64,000 bases of DNA from an uncultured Bacteroidota bacterium (GTDB lineage Bacteria; Bacteroidota; Ignavibacteria; Kryptoniales; JAKASW01). Where the stretch lies: positions 2,888,577-2,952,576 of the forward strand of contig OY969815.1 in the NCBI GenBank assembly GCA_963703365.1, in the 5' to 3' direction. Below are positions 5,935 through 37,406 of this stretch, in pieces. A program made the translations under genes and the position numbers. The notes beneath the pieces were generated by a model that was given only the letters and a program-made list of their open reading frames with translations, was not told where the DNA came from and made no database searches. Numbering within the stretch: the stretch's first letter is position 1; every line of letters begins with the position of its first letter.

Positions 5935-6633
5935 CTATTTCAACATCAACATCTTCTTCACCTTGCTCCAATTGTCGGCGCTTATTCTGTAGAAATAAAC
6001 ACCGGATGAGACAATGGTGCTATTTTTATTTATGCCGTTCCACGTTAGCTCAGTATAACCTGCAGGATAATCTGCATCCGCAACTTGTGCCACCTCTCGA
6101 CCCACGATATCGTAGATACTGAGTTTCACATGAGATGCTTTCGGAAGATCAAATGCTATCTTCGTTGATGGATTAAACGGATTAGGAAAGTTATTGTAAA
6201 GCTTATAATCTGTTGGTGCTGCAACTTCGACCGTTATATCTTTTGTCCATTTTTGACCATCTGATGTGCTTATCGTCGCCGTTAATGTCGTATCCTTTCC
6301 AATCGGTGCCTTCTTGTCTACGGAAAATGTGAACTCTGCGTCTCCTGTAGCGTTGGCTGCAATGCTTTTAATGAGCACAGTGTTTTGCGCCAGAGGCGCA
6401 TCCGCCTCTGGCGGAGATTTGAAGTCGAGCCATGTCGGAAGGTGATTGAATGTTACAGAGACATTCTTTGCTTCGAGGCTGGAAGTATTTTGAATATTCA
6501 GGGAAATCGTGTTGCCAGTCGACGCGAACGGTATTTCCCAAACTTGTCCGGTAACGTTCGTCGAAGCGACCTTCGCAGGTTGACCAAATGTGCTAACGGA
6601 AATTGCTAACAATAGGATGACAACGTATTTCAT
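5935..6633 (-). CDS. Secreted protein with T9SS (Por-type) C-terminal sorting domain
   Basis: It has a signal peptide (MKYVVILLLAISVSTFGQ). The C-terminus FPNPFNPSTKIAFDLP...SGVYFYRI is typical of Por_Secre_tail domains. The ORF contains copy 1 of the 26-nt palindrome, read as ADAPLAQ. Confidence 0.7.
   Translation of the reverse strand: MKYVVILLLAISVSTFGQPAKVASTNVTGQVWEIPFASTGNTISLNIQNTSSLEAKNVSVTFNHLPTWLDFKSPPEADAPLAQNTVLIKSIAANATGDAEFTFSVDKKAPIGKDTTLTATISTSDGQKWTKDITVEVAAPTDYKLYNNFPNPFNPSTKIAFDLPKASHVKLSIYDIVGREVAQVADADYPAGYTELTWNGINKNSTIVSSGVYFYRISADNWSKVKKMLMLK
6387..6412 (+). repeat. 26-nt palindromic element, copy 1 (inside ORF 5935-6633)
   Basis: GCGCCAGAGGCGCATCCGCCTCTGGC. The stem GCCAGAGGC/GCCTCTGGC is 9 bp with a 6-nt loop. 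Confidence 0.8.
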
Positions 6634-8291: not shown

Positions 8292-11288
8292 CTATGGCTG
8301 TGGTTGATATGTTTGGGAATTCTGAATAACGCCTGCAGCATAACCTGTTTTCGAGTTCCATCCATTGTACATCTGCAAAAATGCGTTATCATATCCGACG
8401 CTCCAGTTGGTTGTGCCATCAGGGTTTTCGTTCAGTATTTTCTGAAGCAAGAAAAGCTGATGCTTCATGGCAAATGGAAAGAAAACACTGTCCACATTAA
8501 GGTTTTCAGGCACGTGGTGATTGTCTTCTACATATCCACGATCAAGTGTTGTGGGATACATCATCTGCATCAACCCGTAGGAGCTGGCAATCCTTGTCTG
8601 AGCTACGATATTTTCAAGCCCCTTGGTTCCATTTTTTACCCCGCCATTCCACTGGTCGCGAAGATACGTGGTAATCGAATTAAGTGCGTTTGCGATATCA
8701 TCAGAGCTTGGTGATGGCTTATCCCCTTGGAAATGGTTCAAGATGGAATTATAAATTCTCTGAACTGTAACATACCCATACCTTGCAAAGTCCATTGTGC
8801 CATCCGGATTTCTCTTCCCGTATAATATAACCCCGCCCGGCTCAGATGGGCTTGTAAGCTGCGAATACTGGCTAACCATATACCAAACTTTCTCAGGGGA
8901 ACTGGGGTAAGGAATATATTGAGTATGCTGATGGTATGGAACAGGATCACCCGATCCCATATTTGTCGTCACATAGAATGGGCTGTTAGACCACGAGTCT
9001 GGTAATTGTTTGGGCGTTCGACCATTAAATTGCGTGGTAAAAGGTTCATACCTATACTGCGGCGGGTAGCCCAGCCCCGTGACTGGCTTGGATTCACTCG
9101 CGATTTGTCCTCTGATGTCCTGAGGCGGGATGCCATAAAGTCCTCCATTCACGATGCAGATAGAGTCAATGTCAGGGCGATTGTTAAAAACATCGATGGA
9201 ATAGCGCCATGGGTCGCTTGTGCCGAGGCTACTCGGTTTCTTCACCTCTATATCGATGCTCCCTGTTGCCGAGCCGGAAGACGCCGTCAGCAGAACTTTA
9301 TATGTGGTGCCTTGTTGCCAATATCTTCCAACAAGTCGAATCAACCCTGCAGGTAGAGGATTTCCATCCTCATCTTTGTATTCCCAATAAGCTCCCAACC
9401 TATCTCCTGACTCGGCTTGCACTGAAAACTGTGCATTCACCCTATCACTACTTGCTTGGCCCGGATCGGTGAGCTCTTTGATATCCAGCTTCGATGGATC
9501 GTTCGCGTCTGCCATCGCCTCATAATACTTTGTTTCACCGAGAAGAATTGTATGCCCCTCTATCACCACTTCACCGATGCCAAAATTACTCCACGAAAAG
9601 CTGTTCACATCAGAGACCGATTTAGTATTCCCCTTTCCCACGGACGAGACTACTGACATTGTGGGTGACTTAACGCCAGGGCTTTGAGCACGAGGAGTCG
9701 TTACCGTTGATTTCATCCCGCCTTGCAGAGAAGTCTTTGATATCGTATTGGTTGTCAAAGACTTCTGAAGCACCGTAGTCGCACTCTTCTCACCTGTTCC
9801 TTTTCCGCCCGGCTCAGTTGAACTTAACATTGGCGGCCGCGTTCCTACCCTTACCATTGCAACTACTGAATCAGCATCGACGCTATCTGCGGCTATAAAT
9901 CTGAATGGCTGTGAGACATTAGAAAAATACCCCCCAACGCGGCCATCCGATAACAGTATTGCTCCGTAATTCTCTCCACTCGATATCCCAATCTCAAACT
10001 TTTGGCCGGACGAAAAATCGGTCAAGCTGGCGTCTGCATTTCTCTGCTTTACAATAATTGCCACAGTGTCGCCGGGGGAAGCTACCGATGGAGTATCTGT
10101 CACAATCACAGGTGCCGGCAAGACCTGATCTACACCATAGAGGGGTTTGACGTTCTGCCCAGGCACTGCAATCTCTATCTGTATGTTTGTCGGTTGCTGC
10201 GGATCTTCACCATCCGCAATGTATTCGAATTCCCCGTAAGAAAGTGAGCCCCATTCAATGTCCGTCAGTACTTTTCCCTTCATGATTCCAGCTTGCAAAG
10301 TGCCATATTTCATTCCGGCACTGTCAAGCGTTATATCGATGAGGGTAGAATCCGGAATCGTTACGGGAAGATCATAAATATTCCCGGGTTCCAATCCAAT
10401 CCCTTCCTCATCCAGATGTTGGAGAGAACCCGAAGGAACTGATAGGAAATGATCAAAGTACGGCGGTTCAAGGAAGATCGAATTTTCGCTTGTCAAAGTC
10501 CCACTTTGTGCTTGAACTACTATCGAATCACCCAGTGAATCCACCGCTCCTAACCCATCGGCATCGAGCCAAAAGTCGCCTATGCTATCACCAACAGTCG
10601 TAACCGTAGCTCCCAACCCGACATCAACTCCCGTTTGTGAATCCAACCTGTGGAACGATACGTACTGACTACCGGAAACAATAGTCAACGTAACAGGGTC
10701 GGTGTGAGATGACCATGCTGTCGTGCTGCTATCGTCGTAACCCTGTAAGGCGACACTCGCACTCGTGGAGTATCCCTGCATAAGATAACCATAGTTATTA
10801 CTAAGGAGAAGATTAAACTTCGAGAAATAAGGAGTTGCAAAAGCCGCCTCCAAACCAACCATCGAGATCCATGTGCTATCCTCACCCGACTGACCCGAGC
10901 CGCACAAACTCCCCCACGGGTCAGTACCATCGTAATAATAGCTGAAACAGTTGCCCAGGTCAAACGAATGATACAGAGCCAAATACCCCTCATTAATACA
11001 CGGCGTAAAATAATACACACCAGCAACAGGAGACTGGATCTCGCCACTAACAGAGCCGACCGATGAAAAGACCTTGAAATAATTAGGCCCGCTGACTACA
11101 ACTATCGCATCATACGTCGAGTCCTGTAAAGAGAGAGTAAAGCTCAGCACGTGATTATTAGTTCCTCCCACCTCCACTTTTTTCGCCCGACCAGGCGCTA
11201 TCGTTGCGCTCTCCTTGATATGCACCTGCGCTAAAACTGCACTCGTCATTAGAAAGGTAATCGCAAAAACCGCTCCAGCCCTTTTCAT
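8292..11288 (-). CDS. 998-aa secreted protein with a Ser/Thr-rich linker and C-terminal lytic-transglycosylase-like motifs
   Basis: It has a signal peptide. The C-terminal third carries QIASES ... SYGLMQMMYP ... MYNGWN, matching the SLT motif order ES / GLMQ / YNxG. The ES-to-GLMQ spacing is unusually long. Confidence 0.55.
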   Translation of the reverse strand: MKRAGAVFAITFLMTSAVLAQVHIKESATIAPGRAKKVEVGGTNNHVLSFTLSLQDSTYDAIVVVSGPNYFKVFSSVGSVSGEIQSPVAGVYYFTPCINEGYLALYHSFDLGNCFSYYYDGTDPWGSLCGSGQSGEDSTWISMVGLEAAFATPYFSKFNLLLSNNYGYLMQGYSTSASVALQGYDDSSTTAWSSHTDPVTLTIVSGSQYVSFHRLDSQTGVDVGLGATVTTVGDSIGDFWLDADGLGAVDSLGDSIVVQAQSGTLTSENSIFLEPPYFDHFLSVPSGSLQHLDEEGIGLEPGNIYDLPVTIPDSTLIDITLDSAGMKYGTLQAGIMKGKVLTDIEWGSLSYGEFEYIADGEDPQQPTNIQIEIAVPGQNVKPLYGVDQVLPAPVIVTDTPSVASPGDTVAIIVKQRNADASLTDFSSGQKFEIGISSGENYGAILLSDGRVGGYFSNVSQPFRFIAADSVDADSVVAMVRVGTRPPMLSSTEPGGKGTGEKSATTVLQKSLTTNTISKTSLQGGMKSTVTTPRAQSPGVKSPTMSVVSSVGKGNTKSVSDVNSFSWSNFGIGEVVIEGHTILLGETKYYEAMADANDPSKLDIKELTDPGQASSDRVNAQFSVQAESGDRLGAYWEYKDEDGNPLPAGLIRLVGRYWQQGTTYKVLLTASSGSATGSIDIEVKKPSSLGTSDPWRYSIDVFNNRPDIDSICIVNGGLYGIPPQDIRGQIASESKPVTGLGYPPQYRYEPFTTQFNGRTPKQLPDSWSNSPFYVTTNMGSGDPVPYHQHTQYIPYPSSPEKVWYMVSQYSQLTSPSEPGGVILYGKRNPDGTMDFARYGYVTVQRIYNSILNHFQGDKPSPSSDDIANALNSITTYLRDQWNGGVKNGTKGLENIVAQTRIASSYGLMQMMYPTTLDRGYVEDNHHVPENLNVDSVFFPFAMKHQLFLLQKILNENPDGTTNWSVGYDNAFLQMYNGWNSKTGYAAGVIQNSQTYQPQP

Positions 11289-11353
11289 CGCACAACCCTC
11301 TTTTATGTTGATTTATCTTGTTAAACTAAGTCAACTGAACCATAGGCTCATCT

Positions 11354-11379
11354 GCGCTGAAGGCGCATCAGCCTCTGGC
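11354..11379 (+). repeat. 26-nt palindromic element, copy 2 (intergenic, degenerate left arm)
   Basis: GCGCTGAAGGCGCATCAGCCTCTGGC, upstream of the minus-strand 998-aa gene. Confidence 0.7.
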
Positions 11380-11626
11380 CGAAGCCTAAGGCTGAAAAAA
11401 CCACCTTAATATTGGTGCTTGGGAAGCTCTCTTTTTACAATAACATAAGAAGGAATGAATGTCAATAGGAACACACAAAAATGTTTGTCCACGTGAACTC
11501 CATCACACAGGGAACTTTTTGCTCGAAAGTCGGAAACACATTAAAAGATTCGTTGCATGTAGTCGGCATAAAATCTAAAAAAGGGAAAAGCGGAAGGACA
11601 ACCCTAAACAACCCAGCGCTCACAAT

Positions 11627-24428: not shown

Positions 24429-24445
24429 TGTAATTTATTTCTTTT

Positions 24446-24471
24446 GCGCCCAAGGCGCATCAGCCTCTGGC
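24446..24471 (+). repeat. 26-nt palindromic element, copy 3 (fur stop / fur-feoA spacer)
   Basis: GCGCCCAAGGCGCATCAGCCTCTGGC. The fur stop codon (complement of 24460-24462) lies in the loop. Confidence 0.8.
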
Positions 24472-24975
24472 TGAATCACGTGCATCGTTCTTTTGACATT
24501 CCGAACACAATCCGAATATCTGGTGCGAATGACTTAGTAATCGAAACTTGAATCTCTTCGCAATGCTTTGCTGAGCGGCTTCAATATTTTTGTCGACGAA
24601 CTCGGTGATCTTTCCGCAATTGATGCACACAAGATGATCATGATGTGTGCGGCCGAATGCCTTTTCGTAACGTGAGCCATGATCTTTAAGTCTGGTTTTG
24701 AATACAAGCTTGCACTTTTCGAGAACGTCGAGCGTGTTATAAACTGTGGCCCTTGACACTTTGCTGCCGTCTTCTTTCAGCTTGAGGAACAATTCGTCTG
24801 CATCGAAATGACCGGTTGCCGTATTCACGGCATTAAGGACTTCAAAGCGTTCGGAAGTTACTCGGTAGCCTTCTTTTCGCAGAAATTCTTCTAACTTTTG
24901 TTTTGCTGTTTCCATCCCGCGGTCATATTTTAAATTAAGTCTAAGTAAGTTATCTGTATCAGGCATAGAGTTCAA
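24460..24975 (-). CDS. fur: Fur-family metalloregulator (start uncertain: TTG 24975, ATG 24966 or ATG 24915)
   Basis: Winged-helix segment RVTSERFEVL...SRATVYNTL; metal sites HHDHLVCINCG and CSEC. The stop codon lies in the loop of 26-nt palindrome copy 3. Confidence 0.85.
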   Translation of the reverse strand: MNSMPDTDNLLRLNLKYDRGMETAKQKLEEFLRKEGYRVTSERFEVLNAVNTATGHFDADELFLKLKEDGSKVSRATVYNTLDVLEKCKLVFKTRLKDHGSRYEKAFGRTHHDHLVCINCGKITEFVDKNIEAAQQSIAKRFKFRLLSHSHQIFGLCSECQKNDARDSARG

Positions 24976-28323: not shown

Positions 28324-30528
<2,205 letters not shown>

Positions 30529-30950: not shown

Positions 30951-31874
30951 GTGAGTTTAGTAAATTATTCACAGGTGAGCGAGAACGCACTCAAAATATT
31001 GACGCCGAAATTTATTTCTCAACTGTCGGGCATGGAGATGCGGGCGAGGCTGATAGTTGAGGGATTTCTCGTCGGAATGCACAGGAGCCCGTACCATGGC
31101 TTCAGCGTCGAATTCGCTGAACATAGGCAGTATTTTGCAGGCGACGATATAAGCAACATCGACTGGAAAGCATTCGGGAGAAGCGATAGACTTTATATAA
31201 AACAGTACGAAGAAGAAACAAATCTCAAGGCATACGTCCTTATTGACGGGAGCGGCTCGATGGGATTCAAGCGTGACGGTGAAATCACTAAACTTGAATA
31301 CGCTTCTTATCTTGCGGCCGGTTTGATTTATTTAATGATGAAACAACAGGATGCAACGGGACTGGCAATCTATGACGAAACGATCAGACGTTTTTTTGAG
31401 CCGCATCTCACTTACTCGTACATGAAGCTTCTTTTAACCGAGTTGTCCGGTCTCGAAGCGAATTCAAAAACATCGACCGCAACTGCGCTTTCGTCTCTCG
31501 CCGAAAGAATAAAACGCCGCGGACTCATCATCGTTATAAGCGATTTTCTCGATGAGACAAAAAGCGTTATTACTGCGCTGAAACATTTTCGTCATCGGAA
31601 AAACGAAGTCATAGCGTTCCATGTTCTCGACGACGCCGAGATCAATTTAGATTTTCCGGGTGATGCCATGTTTACGGACCTTGAAACAGGAGAACAAATT
31701 GCGACGCAGGTTTCCGCGTTGAAGTCGGCATACAAAAAAAGTGTGAACAGTTTTATTCGTAATTTGAAGAGCAAATGTTTTGAGAACGACATTGACTATG
31801 TGCTTCTAAGCACCTCGACACCGTTCGATAAGGCGTTGACGGCGTATCTTACAAGAAGAAAGAAAATATTTTAA
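30951..31874 (+). CDS. DUF58 (vWA-like, MoxR-associated family) protein; start uncertain
   Basis: SPYHGFSVEFAEHRQYFAGDDISNIDWKAF...RLYIKQYEEE is the DUF58 signature. Confidence 0.8.
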   Translation: MSLVNYSQVSENALKILTPKFISQLSGMEMRARLIVEGFLVGMHRSPYHGFSVEFAEHRQYFAGDDISNIDWKAFGRSDRLYIKQYEEETNLKAYVLIDGSGSMGFKRDGEITKLEYASYLAAGLIYLMMKQQDATGLAIYDETIRRFFEPHLTYSYMKLLLTELSGLEANSKTSTATALSSLAERIKRRGLIIVISDFLDETKSVITALKHFRHRKNEVIAFHVLDDAEINLDFPGDAMFTDLETGEQIATQVSALKSAYKKSVNSFIRNLKSKCFENDIDYVLLSTSTPFDKALTAYLTRRKKIF

Positions 31875-33077
31875 ATGGAGACCGTGATATTAGCAGTCAT
31901 TGCGATAATTCTCGTCGTCATAATTTTTATCTTTATCCAATTCAAAAGTTTATCGACGAAGCAGCAGTCATCCTCAGAACAGGCTGTTCAGCTTTTCACG
32001 ATTTTCAAATCTGATGTTGAGTCTGCGGTCAAATCGGCTGCCGAGACAACTCGTTCCAACAACGAAAATATGGCAAGCACGCTGAGGCTTGTCAGCGATT
32101 CACTGTCGAAGAGTTTGGATGACAACCGCGCCGGCACAAATGCTCAGGTTGAGCAGCTCGCAAATCAAGTGTCCCAGCTTGCTGGCTTAGTCGGCAAGCA
32201 AGTTGAGAATCTGCGCGGGTCAGTGGAAGAGCGGCTCACAAACTTCAGTTCTCAACTTGGCGGCCAGCTTTCCGAGGCGAACAAACTTTTTTCGTCATTG
32301 AAGCAAGATTTCGGTGAGCTGAAGGAATCGAGCAGCAACATGCTCGAGATCGGGAAGCAGATAAACCAACTGCAGAACATTTTAAGTTCGCCAAAGCTTC
32401 GAGGCAATCTTGGCGAGACGCTTCTTGAAGAATTGATCAAGCAAGTCATACCACAAGGCTTCTACGAATTTCAATACACGTTTCGCGACGGCTCAAAAGT
32501 GGATGCGATCATAAAAACTTCCGAAAGAATAATTCCCATAGACTCGAAATTTCCGAAGGATGAGTTCGAACGTTACGTTAATGCGGAAAATGAGTCTGAA
32601 AAAAATAGCGCCATGACGAAATTTTCGAAAGTGATGAAGGATCAGATCGACGACATTGCGGAGAAGTATATTAAGCCGACCGAAAACACGTTCGACTTTG
32701 CAATCATGTTCATACCTTCAGAGAGCATGTACTACGAGATTTTGATGCAGGATGGAGATGAGAACGGCGCGTATCGTTACGCCATGAAGAAGCATGTGAT
32801 CCCCGCATCGCCGAACAGTTTTTACGCATACATTCAGGCGATTGCAATCGGGCTCAAGGGGATGCAGATCGAAAAGAACGCTCAATTAGTCCGCGACCAG
32901 CTTGCCCAGCTGGAAAATTCTCTTGTAAAGTTTGACGATCATTTCGAGACGCTCGGCACACATCTAAAGAATGCGGCGAATAAGTACAACGATTCACACG
33001 AAGCGCTCGGAAGATTCAGAGAAAGGCTTCAGGCAATTGCGAAGTTAGAAGATAAAGAGCCGCCGAAGATTGTGTGA
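31875..33077 (+). CDS. rmuC: DNA recombination protein RmuC
   Basis: N-terminal TM segment plus coiled coil. RGNLGETLLEELI and the C-terminal RmuC nuclease-like region (MFIPSESMYYE). Confidence 0.85.
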   Translation: METVILAVIAIILVVIIFIFIQFKSLSTKQQSSSEQAVQLFTIFKSDVESAVKSAAETTRSNNENMASTLRLVSDSLSKSLDDNRAGTNAQVEQLANQVSQLAGLVGKQVENLRGSVEERLTNFSSQLGGQLSEANKLFSSLKQDFGELKESSSNMLEIGKQINQLQNILSSPKLRGNLGETLLEELIKQVIPQGFYEFQYTFRDGSKVDAIIKTSERIIPIDSKFPKDEFERYVNAENESEKNSAMTKFSKVMKDQIDDIAEKYIKPTENTFDFAIMFIPSESMYYEILMQDGDENGAYRYAMKKHVIPASPNSFYAYIQAIAIGLKGMQIEKNAQLVRDQLAQLENSLVKFDDHFETLGTHLKNAANKYNDSHEALGRFRERLQAIAKLEDKEPPKIV

Positions 33078-33121
33078 ATTAAAATGTTGTGTAGAAAATG
33101 TTTTGAGGACGCGCTGTTTCA

Positions 33122-33146
33122 CGTCAGCTTGAGCCACTGGTTAGGC
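33122..33146 (-). repeat. attC-like half site (R''-L'' arm only) at the distal end of the cassette array
   Basis: The minus strand reads GCCTAAC-CAGTG-GCTCAAGC-TGACG, starting 7 nt after the stop of ORF 33154-33651. It is 24/25 identical to 33797-33821. I found no matching L'-R' arm towards rmuC. Confidence 0.55.
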
Positions 33147-33153
33147 GGTGCGT

Positions 33154-33651
33154 TTATTTTTCTTTATGAATTAAAGTTGATAATCTAATACCGAACTTCA
33201 TCTCATTTTTTATATTTTTTGTGAAACCAGTTGCTTCAAGTGAATCTGGCGGAATCAATTTGAAATTAGAAGTCACGGGTTCAACAGTTTTATTGATGCT
33301 AATAAGTTCATTAGTGCTTACAGAATAAATAAATGTGAATGCTTGCCATGGTTGATGCCCACCAGAGCTTAGCATACCAAAAACAAAAAACTGCGAATTG
33401 GCTGTCCATTCCGCTTGAACCACACCATACCCATGCTCGTGATCTTTTGATGCATAATTTGTATCTAATATAACTTTCCCTTTATGGTTAAATATTTGAA
33501 TCCTACTTTCAAGTAAAACTCCCCTCTCGGCAATATTATAAACAATAGCACGCATGTTCTTATCAGGAGAAATGAATTCGCGCATATTCCGCGCCGCAAC
33601 GAATGAAATAAAAATAAATAGACTGAGCAATATTTTTATTTGTATTGACAT
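33154..33651 (-). CDS. Cassette ORF 1: small secreted protein of unknown function
   Basis: It has an N-terminal signal/anchor (ILLSLFIFISFVAA). attC-like sites flank it at 33122-33146 and 33672-33821. Confidence 0.6.
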   Translation of the reverse strand: MSIQIKILLSLFIFISFVAARNMREFISPDKNMRAIVYNIAERGVLLESRIQIFNHKGKVILDTNYASKDHEHGYGVVQAEWTANSQFFVFGMLSSGGHQPWQAFTFIYSVSTNELISINKTVEPVTSNFKLIPPDSLEATGFTKNIKNEMKFGIRLSTLIHKEK

Positions 33652-33671
33652 AAAGTATCTCTTTTAGTATC

Positions 33672-33821
33672 GCCTAATGGACTGGAGCTAAGCTGCGGCG
33701 ACGTGCAGCCAGTTCCACGTAGAATACACGCGCGAGAGACATTGCCAATTCCCTAAATTTTCTTTTGCGCGCGGCCAAATCATCGACGGCTGGTTCCGTC
33801 AGCTTGAGCGACTGGTTAGGC
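33672..33821 (-). repeat. attC-like site, about 150 nt (long class)
   Basis: Minus strand: GCCTAAC-CAGTC-GCTCAAGCTGACGG ... CCGCAGCTTAGCTCCAGTCC-ATTAGGC. The arms pair with two single-base bulges (G33806, T33799) on one arm. Confidence 0.6.
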
Positions 33822-33834
33822 AGTTTTTGCATAA

Positions 33835-34431
33835 TTATGGCAACACTTCAACAGTCGTTTTAAATAATGTATTTTGATTTACCCACGCTGGAATTTCCGA
33901 GTTTGTTTGTTCCATAAAGTGGAGCAATATTTTACTGGCAACATCGGATGCAAACTTCCAATCTCTTTTTGTAAAAACGTGACCGAAAATCTTGTTCACC
34001 TTATCAGGTTCGGAAGATGGATGAGCTACGAAATCTCGAGTCACCTTGACAACTTGTAGAAAATCATTCCAGAGAGTTTGATCTTTTAAATGAATTGCCT
34101 GAATGCCAAGAATCTCAGCTAGCACCTTTAGTTGTTCTTTGACTTCTTTTAAATCTGAATTCATTAAATGTTCAAAGCCCTGCGCCTTCGGATATTTCAA
34201 TTGGAGAAGCTTATCACTCGCGTTCCATATATCCCACAATTGCTCTGAAGCAAATGCTTGGATTGTCATGTATGCAAAAAAATATGCCTGAGATACAAAG
34301 GCGAATATAAATGTACCTGGCAAATAAGATTCTTCATTGCTGATGGTTTTGGGAATACCTTTTATGGGATCATATATGAACGCGCGAGATTGTTCCAAAT
34401 AAGATTGAACCGGCAGAATTTCAGTTTTCAT
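33835..34431 (-). CDS. Cassette ORF 2: helical protein with an Rx4H (RDFVAH) HEPN-like motif
   Basis: 198 aa, no signal peptide. The motif VKVTRDFVAHPS sits in the C-terminal half. The ORF is bracketed by a perfect 15-bp inverted repeat (33815-33829 / 34450-34464). Confidence 0.6.
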   Translation of the reverse strand: MKTEILPVQSYLEQSRAFIYDPIKGIPKTISNEESYLPGTFIFAFVSQAYFFAYMTIQAFASEQLWDIWNASDKLLQLKYPKAQGFEHLMNSDLKEVKEQLKVLAEILGIQAIHLKDQTLWNDFLQVVKVTRDFVAHPSSEPDKVNKIFGHVFTKRDWKFASDVASKILLHFMEQTNSEIPAWVNQNTLFKTTVEVLP

Positions 34432-34457
34432 TAGATTGATTTTCCTTCACAAAAACT

Positions 34458-34522
34458 GCCTAACTATATATAGTTATCCTGCCGTATATCCACATAGCAT
34501 TCCGGCAGTGAGAATGTTATGT
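34458..34522 (-). repeat. attC-like site, 65 nt (short class)
   Basis: Minus strand: ACATAAC-ATTCTCA-CTGCCGG...loop...CGGCAGG-ATAACTATATATA-GTTAGGC. The R box pairs 5-6 bp and the inner stem CTGCCG/CGGCAG pairs 6 bp. Confidence 0.5.
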
Positions 34523-34543: not shown

Positions 34544-34966
34544 TCATTTATTCCTGTGTTCCCCTTTCATGAATGGAATATATTTCTGATCCATACCTAT
34601 GATATGGCTAATCCACCAGGTCTTCAAAAATTGAAACACATCCAGTGAAATATCGCCAACAAATGTCCGTTGGTGCCGCATGATCAGCTCGGTTGTTTTT
34701 TGCGTGAAAGCTTTATGGCTGGCTCGATGAGCTTCGAAGTCCGGATAATGGCGCTCTTGCATCAAGGCTTCTTCATCTTTCAGATGCGTATACACATATC
34801 TCTCCATCTCCGCCAAAATGGAGCCCACGATCTGAACTTGTTGTTTTTCCTGTATTGCCCAATACAATCTATTAATCACCTCGAAAATCTCACGATGTTG
34901 CGAGTCGAGTCTTTCTATCCCTACACTATACTCGGGCTTCCAAATCATAAATTCAGGGTTTGACAT
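34544..34966 (-). CDS. Cassette ORF 3: bacteriohemerythrin-like protein
   Basis: W.PEYSVGIERLDSQHREIFEVIN...H...E pattern of hemerythrin cation-binding domains. Confidence 0.8.
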   Translation of the reverse strand: MSNPEFMIWKPEYSVGIERLDSQHREIFEVINRLYWAIQEKQQVQIVGSILAEMERYVYTHLKDEEALMQERHYPDFEAHRASHKAFTQKTTELIMRHQRTFVGDISLDVFQFLKTWWISHIIGMDQKYIPFMKGEHRNK

Positions 34967-35008: not shown

Positions 35009-35207
35009 CACCCAAAGAACCGGAGCTAAACTGCGTGCGGTAGAATATTGAATAACAATCTGCGGCGCCCCGTTACTCCGATATTATTTATTTGTTGAAT
35101 GGAAATTTACTTGGTGAAACTCGTAAATACAACTAAACTTTTGTGGCTCGTGAGGCTGTGAATTTTCGTACACCGCAATTTCAGTTAGCTCGAGCGATTA
35201 GTCAGGC
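35009..35207 (-). repeat. Decayed attC-like site, about 200 nt (long class)
   Basis: Minus strand: GCCTGAC-TAATC-GCTCGAGC... and a far arm ...CAGTTTAGCTCCGG... homologous to 33672-33700. The inner stem is retained (GAGCTAA(A)CTG / CAGTTAGCTC) and the R box is degraded. Confidence 0.45.
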
Positions 35208-35222
35208 ATTTACATGGCGAAC

Positions 35223-35663
35223 TCATAGCAAGCGTAGAGCATAGATCAGCGCTATCAATGATGCTGCGATAAGAATGGGCGATGAATAGACTCCAGGCAG
35301 AAAATGTCTCTTATAGAGGGAACTTCCAACATGTCCGAGGCCGTTGCCGATCATCATTATGGAAAACGGCACCGCCGCTATGATGATCCATCTCGTACCG
35401 CGAAAGGCAAATGGGCTTAACACGAGCAAAAATCCTACCAGGGCGGACAAACCGGCGATCCAAACTCGAAAGGAAAACGTCGGCAGCGGAATCCACGGAA
35501 ACCTTTGACGAAGCGCCCGCACCGTTGGATTGTAAACCGCCAGAAAGTCCGTGATAGCCTCGTCGGCCACATGAAGAGCCAAGGCTCCCGCCAGTCCGAG
35601 CCAAGACCAGCCAAAATGGACTGTCTCAACTGACCACCATCTTGGGTTATATAGAGGGTTCAT
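35223..35663 (-). CDS. Cassette ORF 4: small polytopic membrane protein, HXXEE-domain-like (HVADE)
   Basis: Four hydrophobic segments and the LHVADEAITDF motif. It is GC-richer than its neighbours and spawns shadow ORFs. Its ATG lies 1 nt after the GTTAGAC core. Confidence 0.55.
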   Translation of the reverse strand: MNPLYNPRWWSVETVHFGWSWLGLAGALALHVADEAITDFLAVYNPTVRALRQRFPWIPLPTFSFRVWIAGLSALVGFLLVLSPFAFRGTRWIIIAAVPFSIMMIGNGLGHVGSSLYKRHFLPGVYSSPILIAASLIALIYALRLL

Positions 35664-35664
35664 C

Positions 35665-35711
35665 GTCTAACTACAATTAGCCTGTCATGGGTCCGCATAA
35701 CCTTCCGGCAG
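35665..35711 (-). repeat. Partial short-class attC-like site abutting the panB stop
   Basis: It is homologous to 34458-34508 (ACTGCCGGAA.G.TATG.GGA....CAGG.TAA...TAGTTAG.C) and ends in GTTAGAC 1 nt before the ATG at 35663. I saw no convincing R'' partner. Confidence 0.4.
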
Positions 35712-35725
35712 TAAAAGCGCTCTTC

Positions 35726-36541
35726 TTAGTAGCTCTCTTCCTTCGACGGAAATTTTCCCTTCTTAACATCATCTATATATCTGATAAAAGCATTGTGCAT
35801 CTCTTCGGCAATGTTTGCATAGTGGCGCACGAAGCGCGGCTTGAATTCCTGAGTCAGCCCGACCATGTCCGCATAAACAAGTATCTGTCCGTCACAATGC
35901 ACGCCTGCTCCGATTCCGATCGTCGGGATCTTGATGCTCTTTGTAACCTTCGCGGCCAACTGCGCGGGAATTTTTTCGAGCACGATCGAGAACGCCCCGG
36001 CGGCTTCGAGAAGTTTTGCATCGGCTAAAATTCCTGTCGCCTCGGCCTTGTCTTCTCCACGAGGTTTGTACCCGCCGAATTTATTTATCGACTGCGGAGT
36101 CAATCCGAGGTGTCCCATGACAGGGATCCCAATTTCCGTCATCCTTCGAACCGATTCGGCGATTGCTTTACCGCCTTCCACTTTCACGGCACTTGCACCG
36201 GTTTCTTTTAAAATTCTCCCCGCATTCCTGAGTGTTTCCTCCGCATCGACCTGATAACTCATGAACGGCATGTCAACAACGACAAGCGCACGCTTCACTG
36301 CCCGAGTTACAATCTTGGAGTGGTAAATCATTTCGTCCAGCGTCACCGGGATTGTCGTATCGTTTCCTTGAAATACATTCGAGAGCGAGTCGCCGACAAG
36401 TATTATATCGATGCCGGATTCGTCGAGTATGCGCGCGACAATTGCATCGTACGCCGTCAGCGCACTTATCTTCACGCCGTTTTTCTTCGACAGGACTATC
36501 GTCCGCGTCGTTACCACTTTTGGCTTTTCTGTCTCGATCAT
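35726..36541 (-). CDS. panB: 3-methyl-2-oxobutanoate hydroxymethyltransferase
   Basis: [10 protein letters not shown]...ILVGDSL...PFMSYQ...VKVEGG...GHLGLTPQS. Confidence 0.95.
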
Positions 36542-36578: not shown

Positions 36579-37406
36579 TCAGCCAACAACCGGGTTCATA
36601 TTGCGGCTACGATTCATATAAATGTCATCAAGAATTTCGCCGGCATCATTTGAAAAATTCGCGTCAAGCATGTCTTCAAAGCCGTTTTTAACAGCTTCTT
36701 TTATTTCAGTGAACTCTATCTTTTGCGCCAGAGGCGCATCAGCCTTTGGCTGACTTTTCAGAATTTCTGTCAACGTCGTGGTGTGCGAATCAAGATCACT
36801 CAACGTTTTCTGTTTGAGTTTGTCATCGACGTTAAGATATTTGACGATTTGCTTGTGAAAGTTTCCGATCAGGATCGAGCCATGCTGAAGTAAGACATCG
36901 CCGAATCTGTGTTGTGCACTGCCGACAAGTTTTTTGCCATGCCATTCGACTTCGTAAACAGCGGAAGTCGAGAAACACGGTATCGTAGAAGGATCATGGA
37001 ACAGCTTGCGGAAATCGGTCGAGCTTTGGGATAATTCCAAATCCGCAACAAGAGTTCGAAGGCCTTCGGCGAGAGCGTTACTGATTAAATTATAGCTATC
37101 GCGAATCGGCAATCCACCTGTGCTCATTACGACGGAATAAGTCAACTCATCCGCATGGAGAACAGCCTTTCCGCCGGTAGGCCGCTTCACGACTTCGATG
37201 CCATCTTGTCCGGCAAGCTCAACGATTATATCTGAGTCGTTTTGATTCTTGCCGAGCGAAATGCAGAAGGGTTTCCAGCGGTAAAACCTGAGAATGGGTG
37301 TGTGATCAATTTTGAATTCATCCACAAGCCGGAGGTCGAAGTCCATGTTAAACCTCCCGTCGTGCTCTCCCGTGTCGATGCAATTCCACAGCACAACATC
37401 GCTCAC
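36579..37406 (-). CDS. Biotin/lipoate A/B protein ligase family protein (LplA/LipM-like)
   Basis: RRPTGGKAVLHADELTYSVV and GKKLVGSAQHRFGDVLLQHGSILI. The ORF contains 26-nt palindrome copy 4, read as ADAPLAQ. Confidence 0.7.
   Translation of the reverse strand: MSDVVLWNCIDTGEHDGRFNMDFDLRLVDEFKIDHTPILRFYRWKPFCISLGKNQNDSDIIVELAGQDGIEVVKRPTGGKAVLHADELTYSVVMSTGGLPIRDSYNLISNALAEGLRTLVADLELSQSSTDFRKLFHDPSTIPCFSTSAVYEVEWHGKKLVGSAQHRFGDVLLQHGSILIGNFHKQIVKYLNVDDKLKQKTLSDLDSHTTTLTEILKSQPKADAPLAQKIEFTEIKEAVKNGFEDMLDANFSNDAGEILDDIYMNRSRNMNPVVG
36725..36750 (+). repeat. 26-nt palindromic element, copy 4 (inside lipoate-ligase-family ORF)
   Basis: GCGCCAGAGGCGCATCAGCCTTTGGC, preceded by TTTT as in copies 1 and 3. 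Confidence 0.8.

Follow-up and report, generated by a model that had tools for sequence, protein, structure and literature searches.

The recombinogenic form of an attC site is its bottom strand, in which one arm bears the AAC triplet and the other an unpaired G and an unpaired T (Nivina et al. 2016, PMC5027507). The extrahelical G is at position 16 and the T at position 23 or 24, and the 6-bp stem between them is required (PMC5027507). The integrase cleaves the bottom-strand AAC at the point where A meets C (PMC2811028). When G1/C3' was changed in one partner, recombination of attC_aadA7 with attI1 by IntI1 went down 10^3–10^4-fold, and the same change in both partners fully restored activity (PMC2811028). 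When the cleavage site was non-complementary, recombination dropped about 370-fold, from 2.2e-3 to 6e-6, and substrates changed from G1 to A1 were still cleaved in vitro (PMC2811028). The VCRs and the other homogeneous families in sedentary chromosomal integrons of Vibrio and Xanthomonas consist of attC sites longer than 120 nt that are highly similar across hundreds of cassettes. CALINs hold several attC sites together with small ORFs that look promoterless, and neither intI nor a pseudogene of it is nearby; degraded or split integrons have been proposed as what they are, and integrase loss, rearrangement and secondary-site insertion as their origins (Cury et al. 2016, PMC4889954; PMC9024848).

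We analyzed a candidate attC, called site B, in a 64-kb stretch of DNA (the window). Its parts are as follows.

33672–33821, plus strand: site B, written as the bottom (recombinogenic) strand; attC of cassette c3
33672–33678, plus strand: bottom-strand R' box, GCCTAAT where the family has GCCTAAC, predicted cut between A33677 and T33678; GCCTAA (33672–33677) is part of the next cassette, c4, and T33678 is part of the body of site B
33679–33686, plus strand: central spacer, 5' half; reads GGACTGGA, in the family GGACCGGA; 8 nt against the usual 5–6
33687–33698, plus strand: L' arm, GCT / AAGCTG / CGG, from hand pairing and the minimum free energy (MFE) fold
33796–33809, plus strand: L'' arm, CCG-T-CAGCTT-G-AGC, with extrahelical T33799 and G33806, positions and spacing canonical by PMC5027507
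33810–33814, plus strand: 3' half of the central spacer, GACTG, 5 nt
33815–33821, plus strand: R'' box GTTAGGC, intact, fitting GTTRRRY

For a comparison of layouts, we used attC_aadA7, an attC of class 1 mobile integrons and the usual substrate in experiments. That site is about 60 nt long, whereas site B has 150 nt, a long conserved central region, an 8-nt 5' spacer and AAT in place of AAC. Both sites have an R box of 7 nt, a 3'-arm spacer of 5 nt, 3 bp, an extrahelical G (16), a 6-bp stem and an extrahelical T (23), and in both the R boxes follow RYYYAAC and GTTRRRY (PMC5027507), a pattern that GCCTAAT at 33672–33678 fits at 6 of 7 positions. The exception is the conserved C, which is T. 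Because of this base, we classed site B as an attC derivative that carries a mutation rather than as a canonical, functional attC.

An earlier note on this DNA, made from its letters, had paired the plus strand by hand and proposed an attC bottom strand with a mutated recombination point. Checked against the sequence, each helix that it described is there. GCCTAA at 33672–33677 pairs with TTAGGC at 33816–33821 to form the R box, and GCT (33687–33689) pairs with AGC (33807–33809), leaving G33806 bulged. AAGCTG (33690–33695) pairs with CAGCTT (33800–33805), leaving T33799 bulged, and CGG (33696–33698) pairs with CCG (33796–33798). The note could not verify the canonical positions of the two bulges; they are at the attC extrahelical positions, G33806 at 16 and T33799 at 23 from the 3' end, where the numbering is counted from 33821, an inferred origin, and the 6-bp spacing and the identities of the G and the T are read directly. 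T33678 stands opposite G33815 as a T.G mismatch, where the attC family described below has a C-G pair.

The central spacer was less simple than the note had it. GGACTGGA and GACTG form no Watson-Crick pairs with each other, but the MFE fold joins ACTGG to CTGGT with two G.T pairs. When 33660–33830 of the plus strand was folded with DNA parameters, as the note had advised, the L-box helices, both bulges and 5 bp of the R box were recovered, but the spacer was partly paired. The same competing register appears in the family. The RNAalifold consensus favoured a spacer helix with G.U over the R box, and in the family consensus the 8-nt 5' spacer can pair with the 3' spacer and the first bases of R'', unlike the textbook unpaired spacer. 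Both bulges lie on the L'' arm. The fold energies of the two strands are about alike, at −23.6 kcal/mol on the plus strand and −22.6 kcal/mol on the minus strand. The MFE z-scores for 33660–33830 are 0.03 and 0.55, respectively. Folding energy is uninformative for site B, and thermodynamics alone is no evidence. An Rfam scan of the whole 64-kb window gave zero matches at the gathering score.

The identity of site B was established by comparison with related sites. Its 3' arm is repeated in the window at 33122–33149 and, in degenerate form, at 35183–35210. An exact scan for AGCTTGAGCNACTGGTTAGGC, which covered one genome per species, found at least 119 stretches, all in metagenome-assembled genomes (MAGs). 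The listed matches are mostly labelled Bacteroidota, Bacteroidetes, Ignavibacteriota or Chitinophagaceae, and some contigs carry dozens of copies. Extending the matches upstream gave a unit of about 152 nt, RCCTAAC GGACCGGA GCT AAGCTG CGG ... CCG T CAGCTT G AGC GACTG GTTAGGC, with 634 unique full-length copies in the integron arrays of MAGs from Bacteroidota, Ignavibacteriota and Kryptoniota. The hosts of the family are uncultured members of these three groups, and it is common in uncultured soil bacteria. We also noted several phylum-level labels among its carriers, including single matches in MAGs labelled alpha-, beta- and deltaproteobacteria. Very large arrays are present in long-read MAGs labelled Bacteroidetes, with many loci on CAWGZY010000005.1 (L008, L015, L020, L025, L026, L029, L030, L034, L040, L071, L076 and L081) and on OY970334.1 (L011, L018, L019, L022, L036, L042, L046, L053, L054, L058, L059, L063 and L066).

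A covariance model was based on 94 diverse sites taken from other genomes; the window was excluded. Because RNAalifold preferred the spacer helix containing G.U, the canonical R-box and L-box pairs were imposed on the model. Site B matched it over its full length (model positions 1–153) on the plus strand only, with 140.6 bits and an E value of 1.7e-31; the rest of the window gave nothing below E 0.1. In 706 kb of fetched loci the model had 667 matches with a median spacer of 539 nt. With an HMM of the same alignment, nhmmer scored site B at 121.9 bits (E 1.5e-35), rank 482 among the 634 full-length sites, and found three matches in the window: site B, a degenerate site (site D) and a fragment at 33113–33146. 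The bulged G is kept in 680 of 681 family sites and the bulged T in 681 of 683. Compensatory changes occur at model pairs 16-141, 21-135, 26-129 and 27-128, with G-C replaced by C-G 14 times at 21-135. R'' starts with GTTA in 631 of the 634 sites.

Genes for integrases adjoin the family in seven fetched loci. Their proteins are 47–54% identical to IntI1, and the three that were scanned with TIGR02249, the NCBIfam integron integrase model, score 434–457 bits against a cutoff of 265. The model score, the adjoining integrases and the canonical bulges bear out the earlier assignment of 33672–33821 to attC. By descent, site B is a genuine attC, one of a homogeneous family of about 152 nt in large chromosomal cassette arrays. 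The family resembles the VCR and Xanthomonas families in its length and uniformity. It differs from VCR-type sites in being another sequence family, hosted by FCB-group MAGs under several phylum labels, with intI in both orientations. As for that orientation, intI is co-directional with the cassettes in two loci (L007 and L060) and divergent in five (L004, L035, L069, L079 and L091).

The cassettes between these sites behave as units. We compared the outer triplets of the R boxes across 530 pairs of neighbouring sites. The triplet at the 3' end of the left site and the one at the 5' end of its right neighbour, which bound a single cassette, are complementary in 500 pairs; the outer triplets of one and the same site are complementary in only 167 of 530. 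Exchange at the conserved triplet leaves this signature, and the cassettes are real recombination units. The triplet comparison is silent on polarity.

Polarity matters here, since the plus strand reads GCCTAAT...GTTAGGC and would also fit R''...R' with an intact GTT. If the plus strand were the top strand, R' would be the intact GTTAGGC at 33815–33821 and the change would fall in the less critical R''; the similar fold energies of both strands would allow this. However, the longest ORF between sites runs opposite to the bottom-strand orientation of the site in 447 of 493 scorable intervals and on the same strand in 46, so that 91% of these ORFs would become antisense to the array. The integron integrase gene, which is upstream of the array in all seven loci (7 of 7), would move to the far end in each of them, and the c3 ORF would come after its attC instead of before it. 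The two bulged bases, G and T, are on the other arm from the AAC triplet. We rejected the reversed polarity, which we consider scarcely credible, on the strength of ORF orientation, integrase position and the arm that bears the bulges. These same three features fix the polarity as the note had it, with the plus strand as the bottom strand.

The top-strand R' of site B reads ATTAGGC instead of GTTAGGC, as had been pointed out. The 5' end of the family is TAAC in 624 of the 634 unique sites and TAAT in only 4, and the pair at the cleavage point is C-G in 624 of 631 sites and T.G in 5, including site B. A homologous c3 cassette on the JGI contig L123 has GCCTAAC in an attC of the same family. The ancestral state at 33678 is therefore C. 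The only other difference of site B from the arm consensus is a C to T change at 33683, which about 6% of the family sites share. When the canonical fold was imposed, site B was about 1.9 kcal/mol weaker than its C revertant. Both substitutions, at 33678 and 33683, are C to T changes at CpG (AACGG and CCGG contexts). One may speculate that both arose by deamination of methylated cytosine.

It is very improbable that T33678 is an assembly or sequencing error in a canonical site. The source is a metagenome assembly, and the window differs from an ENA contig at one other base (31038), which speaks for such an error. However, T33678 is found both in the ENA contig and in a separate Logan assembly of run ERR11748453, the latter 100% identical over 31092–33710, and these agree across the site, though they may come from the same sample. 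At 31038 the window has A and the ENA contig (ERZ25039519 contig_57257) has C; no other base differs across 13.2 kb, and this position falls within the DUF58 gene.

Site B is part of an array between rmuC and panB. From panB to rmuC on the minus strand, the order is site E, c1, site D, c2, site C, c3, site B, c4 and site A. The other features of the array and its flanking genes, by coordinate, are the following.

31875–33077, plus strand: rmuC
33093–33146, plus strand: site A, a half attC with R''-L'' only, R' half gone, abutting the rmuC stop codon
33154–33651, minus strand: ORF of cassette c4, 165 aa (143 aa in the public annotation)
33835–34431, minus strand: ORF of cassette c3, 198 aa, in no Pfam family; on the minus strand c3 extends from 34463 to 33678
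34464–34522, plus strand: site C, attI-type, after the hemerythrin ORF; GCCTAA at 34458–34463 is the start of c3
34544–34966, minus strand: c2, hemerythrin ORF (PF01814, E 2.8e-14)
35011–35207, plus strand: site D, a degenerate member of the attC family, with R' CCCAAAG and R'' GTCAGGC
35223–35663, minus strand: ORF of cassette c1, HXXEE family, 146 aa (PF13787, E 3.1e-7)
35665–35717, plus strand: site E, attI-type, first in the array, 14 nt away from the stop codon of panB, GTCTAA/C TACAATTAG... (the slash marks the crossover)
35726–36541, minus strand: panB

The stop codon of c3 (33835–33837) is 14 nt from site B, so an ORF is followed by its attC, as in a cassette. GCCTAA at 33672–33677, which starts c4, is complementary to R'' of half-site A. 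Site A matches model positions 121–153 only (22.7 bits, E 4.8e-5), and site D matches positions 2–153 (23.5 bits, E 2.7e-5), both by nhmmer. With one degenerate and one half attC, the four-cassette array is partly decayed. Its GC content is 0.37–0.41, against 0.45–0.5 in the flanks, and the c1–c4 ORFs have no homologs in the roughly 700 kb of fetched arrays.

No IntI-like gene or remnant was found in the 64-kb window by tblastn with IntI1 and two integrases of the family (nothing below E 0.5). At least two clustered attC sites (B full, D degenerate, A half) and no integron integrase nearby make the array a CALIN. It also has the promoterless-looking small ORFs of a CALIN. It differs from one in that two attI-type sites are kept and that at least three related species have an array at this position, each with other cassettes.

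The two attI-type sites resemble the attI of integrase-bearing loci. In L060 an element separates the first cassette from the intI stop codon; site C matches it at 92% identity over 52 nt, and site E is 84% identical over 49 nt to the same attI. Homologous elements occupy the interval between intI and the first cassette in L060 (5747–5817) and L035 (5601–5680). When the crossover was mapped by complementarity of cassette ends, it fell in a TAA/C TAYRATTAG-like core in L060 and L035 and in a looser version in L069 and L007. Site E carries this core and site C a variant of it. Sites C and E thus appear to be attI-type sites, not attCs of the 152-nt family, with the reservation that no intI lies beside either and that C, like an attC, comes after an ORF. 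In this integrase-less array, then, one attI-type site is at the head beside the panB stop codon and one is mid-array after the hemerythrin ORF. The hemerythrin ORF has no family attC, and in a sister locus (L131) attI-type elements flank the hemerythrin gene.

Homologs of the c3 protein were found at 80%, 60% and 68% identity. The 80% homolog is on L123, a contig of 1.3 kb, where the neighbours on both sides differ from those in the window. DNA homology between c3 and L123 spans 33796–34464 and stops at the crossover C, and on both sides the homology ends at the crossover. Because the homolog has different neighbours and the homology stops at the crossover, c3 is taken to be mobile as a cassette. 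A truncated 113-aa relative of c3 is found on another contig (ERZ25039473 contig_17822, 75.8 kb; L124) in a long array of small co-oriented ORFs. That array includes toxin-antitoxin pairs, two transposase genes and diverged copies of the 152-nt attC family (20–50 bits).

The closest homologs of PanB, at 94% and 93% identity, are labelled Candidatus Kryptoniota and have the same panB...rmuC frame. In one of these sister loci (L131) the interval holds a hemerythrin gene (85% amino acid identity to c2) and an unrelated ORF of 239 aa, and in the other (L134) a single unrelated ORF of 206 aa. Beside panB, both retain an element of attI type, and beside rmuC a similar truncated half attC. In L131 this half site scores 22.7 bits (reverse complement of 8790–10340, positions 64–97), and in L134 it is degenerate. 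More distant relatives, with RmuC at 80–84% identity, have a 1103-aa gene after rmuC, no array and no panB beside rmuC. A further site with the 3' arm of the family is found at another locus on the same 2.98-Mb contig as L131 (L065, 5264–5423), with no integrase gene within the 8 kb fetched.

The note had proposed a comparison with sister strains. The homologous cassette on L123 has the normal C, and the cassette of site B is absent at the locus of the sister species. The elements c1, c3, site B and c4 are thus specific to the lineage of the window, and the locus has turned over after the split of the sister species.

In three lineages a half attC preceded by GAAAATGTTTTRAGG abuts rmuC, and the adjacent ORF is unrelated in each (165, 239 and 206 aa). 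We considered secondary-site insertion of a cassette as the source of half-site A and rejected it; such an insertion would leave a complete attC body. Because an integrase cannot excise a cassette whose attC is without R', the terminal cassette may be replaced by recombination within the conserved attC arm.

The behaviour of site B in recombination can be predicted from these comparisons. When single-stranded, the plus strand would fold into the bottom-strand hairpin, with the R box, an unpaired spacer and an L box carrying extrahelical G33806 and T33799. The expected cut by an integron integrase falls after A33677 and before T33678. In strand exchange the base on the 3' side of that cut must pair with the partner site, and it is this base that has changed from C to T at a CpG; its hairpin partner G33815 is unchanged. 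Site B is therefore predicted to recombine very poorly with GTT partners, among them both attI-type sites in the same array, which are TAA/C. Poor recombination at site B would lock c3 and c4 together.

The closest experimental counterparts are the engineered mutants of Frumerie et al. 2010 (PMC2811028), which have, like site B, G1 changed to A1 on the top strand and C3' changed to T3' on the bottom strand, but on both arms, so that the hairpin stayed paired, whereas site B is changed on one arm only and has a T.G mismatch. Site B is probably crippled, though expected to fold and to be cut, and "disabled" is a reasonable word for it; this effect is extrapolated from the IntI1/attC_aadA7 mutants, and with a one-sided T.G it could be milder.

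Taken together, the most likely reading is that site B is a genuine attC with a CpG C to T change at its cut, still foldable and cleavable but poor with GTT partners, in a partly decayed array with no integrase gene in the 64-kb window. We observed its family membership, its polarity, the rarity of T, the ancestral C and the array context; the size of the recombination defect is a prediction, and an integrase encoded elsewhere in the genome may or may not be able to act on the site.

Site B could instead be a working site, if the cognate integrase tolerates T.G or if ATT partners are used; T33678 would then be a neutral or specificity-shifting polymorphism. The experiments cited above give this some room, because G1 to A1 substrates still undergo cleavage and a change shared by both partners brings recombination back in full (PMC2811028). 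With only one arm changed, the C of an incoming partner would pair normally with G33815. The remainder of both arms is intact, and the locus exchanged cassettes not long ago, as its content differs among the sister species. Four other TAAT members of the family lie within large arrays that otherwise look active. Against this, T is found in less than 1% of the 634 sites, so the family does not maintain it; the array's two attI-type sites are TAA/C, so no matching ATT partner is nearby; and a change in one partner cost 10^3–10^4-fold in the sole system tested (PMC2811028). On balance, we regard a working site as unlikely.

We return to the reading of site B as an attC with a lesion at its cut. 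The earlier note had suggested that it is fossilised. This holds in so far as T33678 is predicted to cripple the site, but cutting is still expected, and c3 is absent in the sister species, so the site is no ancient relic. Since its cassette is missing from the same locus of the sister species, site B arrived recently and its lesion is recent.

A broader interpretation would make the panB-rmuC locus an integrase-less yet active exchange locus. It would be served by an integrase in trans, with attI-type sites (one of them internal) and, at the terminal cassette, recombination in the conserved attC arm in place of R', and ATT would be a specificity change that couples c3 and c4 rather than mere decay. 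We consider this a long shot.

Site B is a clean natural case in which the nucleotide found by experiment to be the only strict homology requirement of integron recombination is mutated on one arm. It leaves the current understanding of integrons unchanged; the internal attI-type site and the conserved half attC are less expected. The wider context is more useful, as a single attC family of about 152 nt links hundreds of cassettes across soil MAGs of Bacteroidota, Ignavibacteriota and Kryptoniota. With its fixed position and its varying content among sisters, the panB-rmuC locus is tractable for studying the turnover of integrase-less arrays.

Two other features of the window were noted. The katG gene (28324–30504) has a GC content of about 0.6, against about 0.45 in its flanks. 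Its protein is 96% identical to that of a relative (L126), where the neighbours are 92% (DUF58) and 83% (RmuC) identical. The contrast in GC and identity hints at horizontal transfer of katG. A 36-nt GC-rich palindromic repeat, TGCGCCAGAGGCGCATCAGCCTCTGGC-like, is present in four copies (6381–6416, 11348–11383, 24440–24475 and 36719–36754). The last copy lies inside the lipB ORF (36579–37406), and the repeat is unrelated to the attC family.
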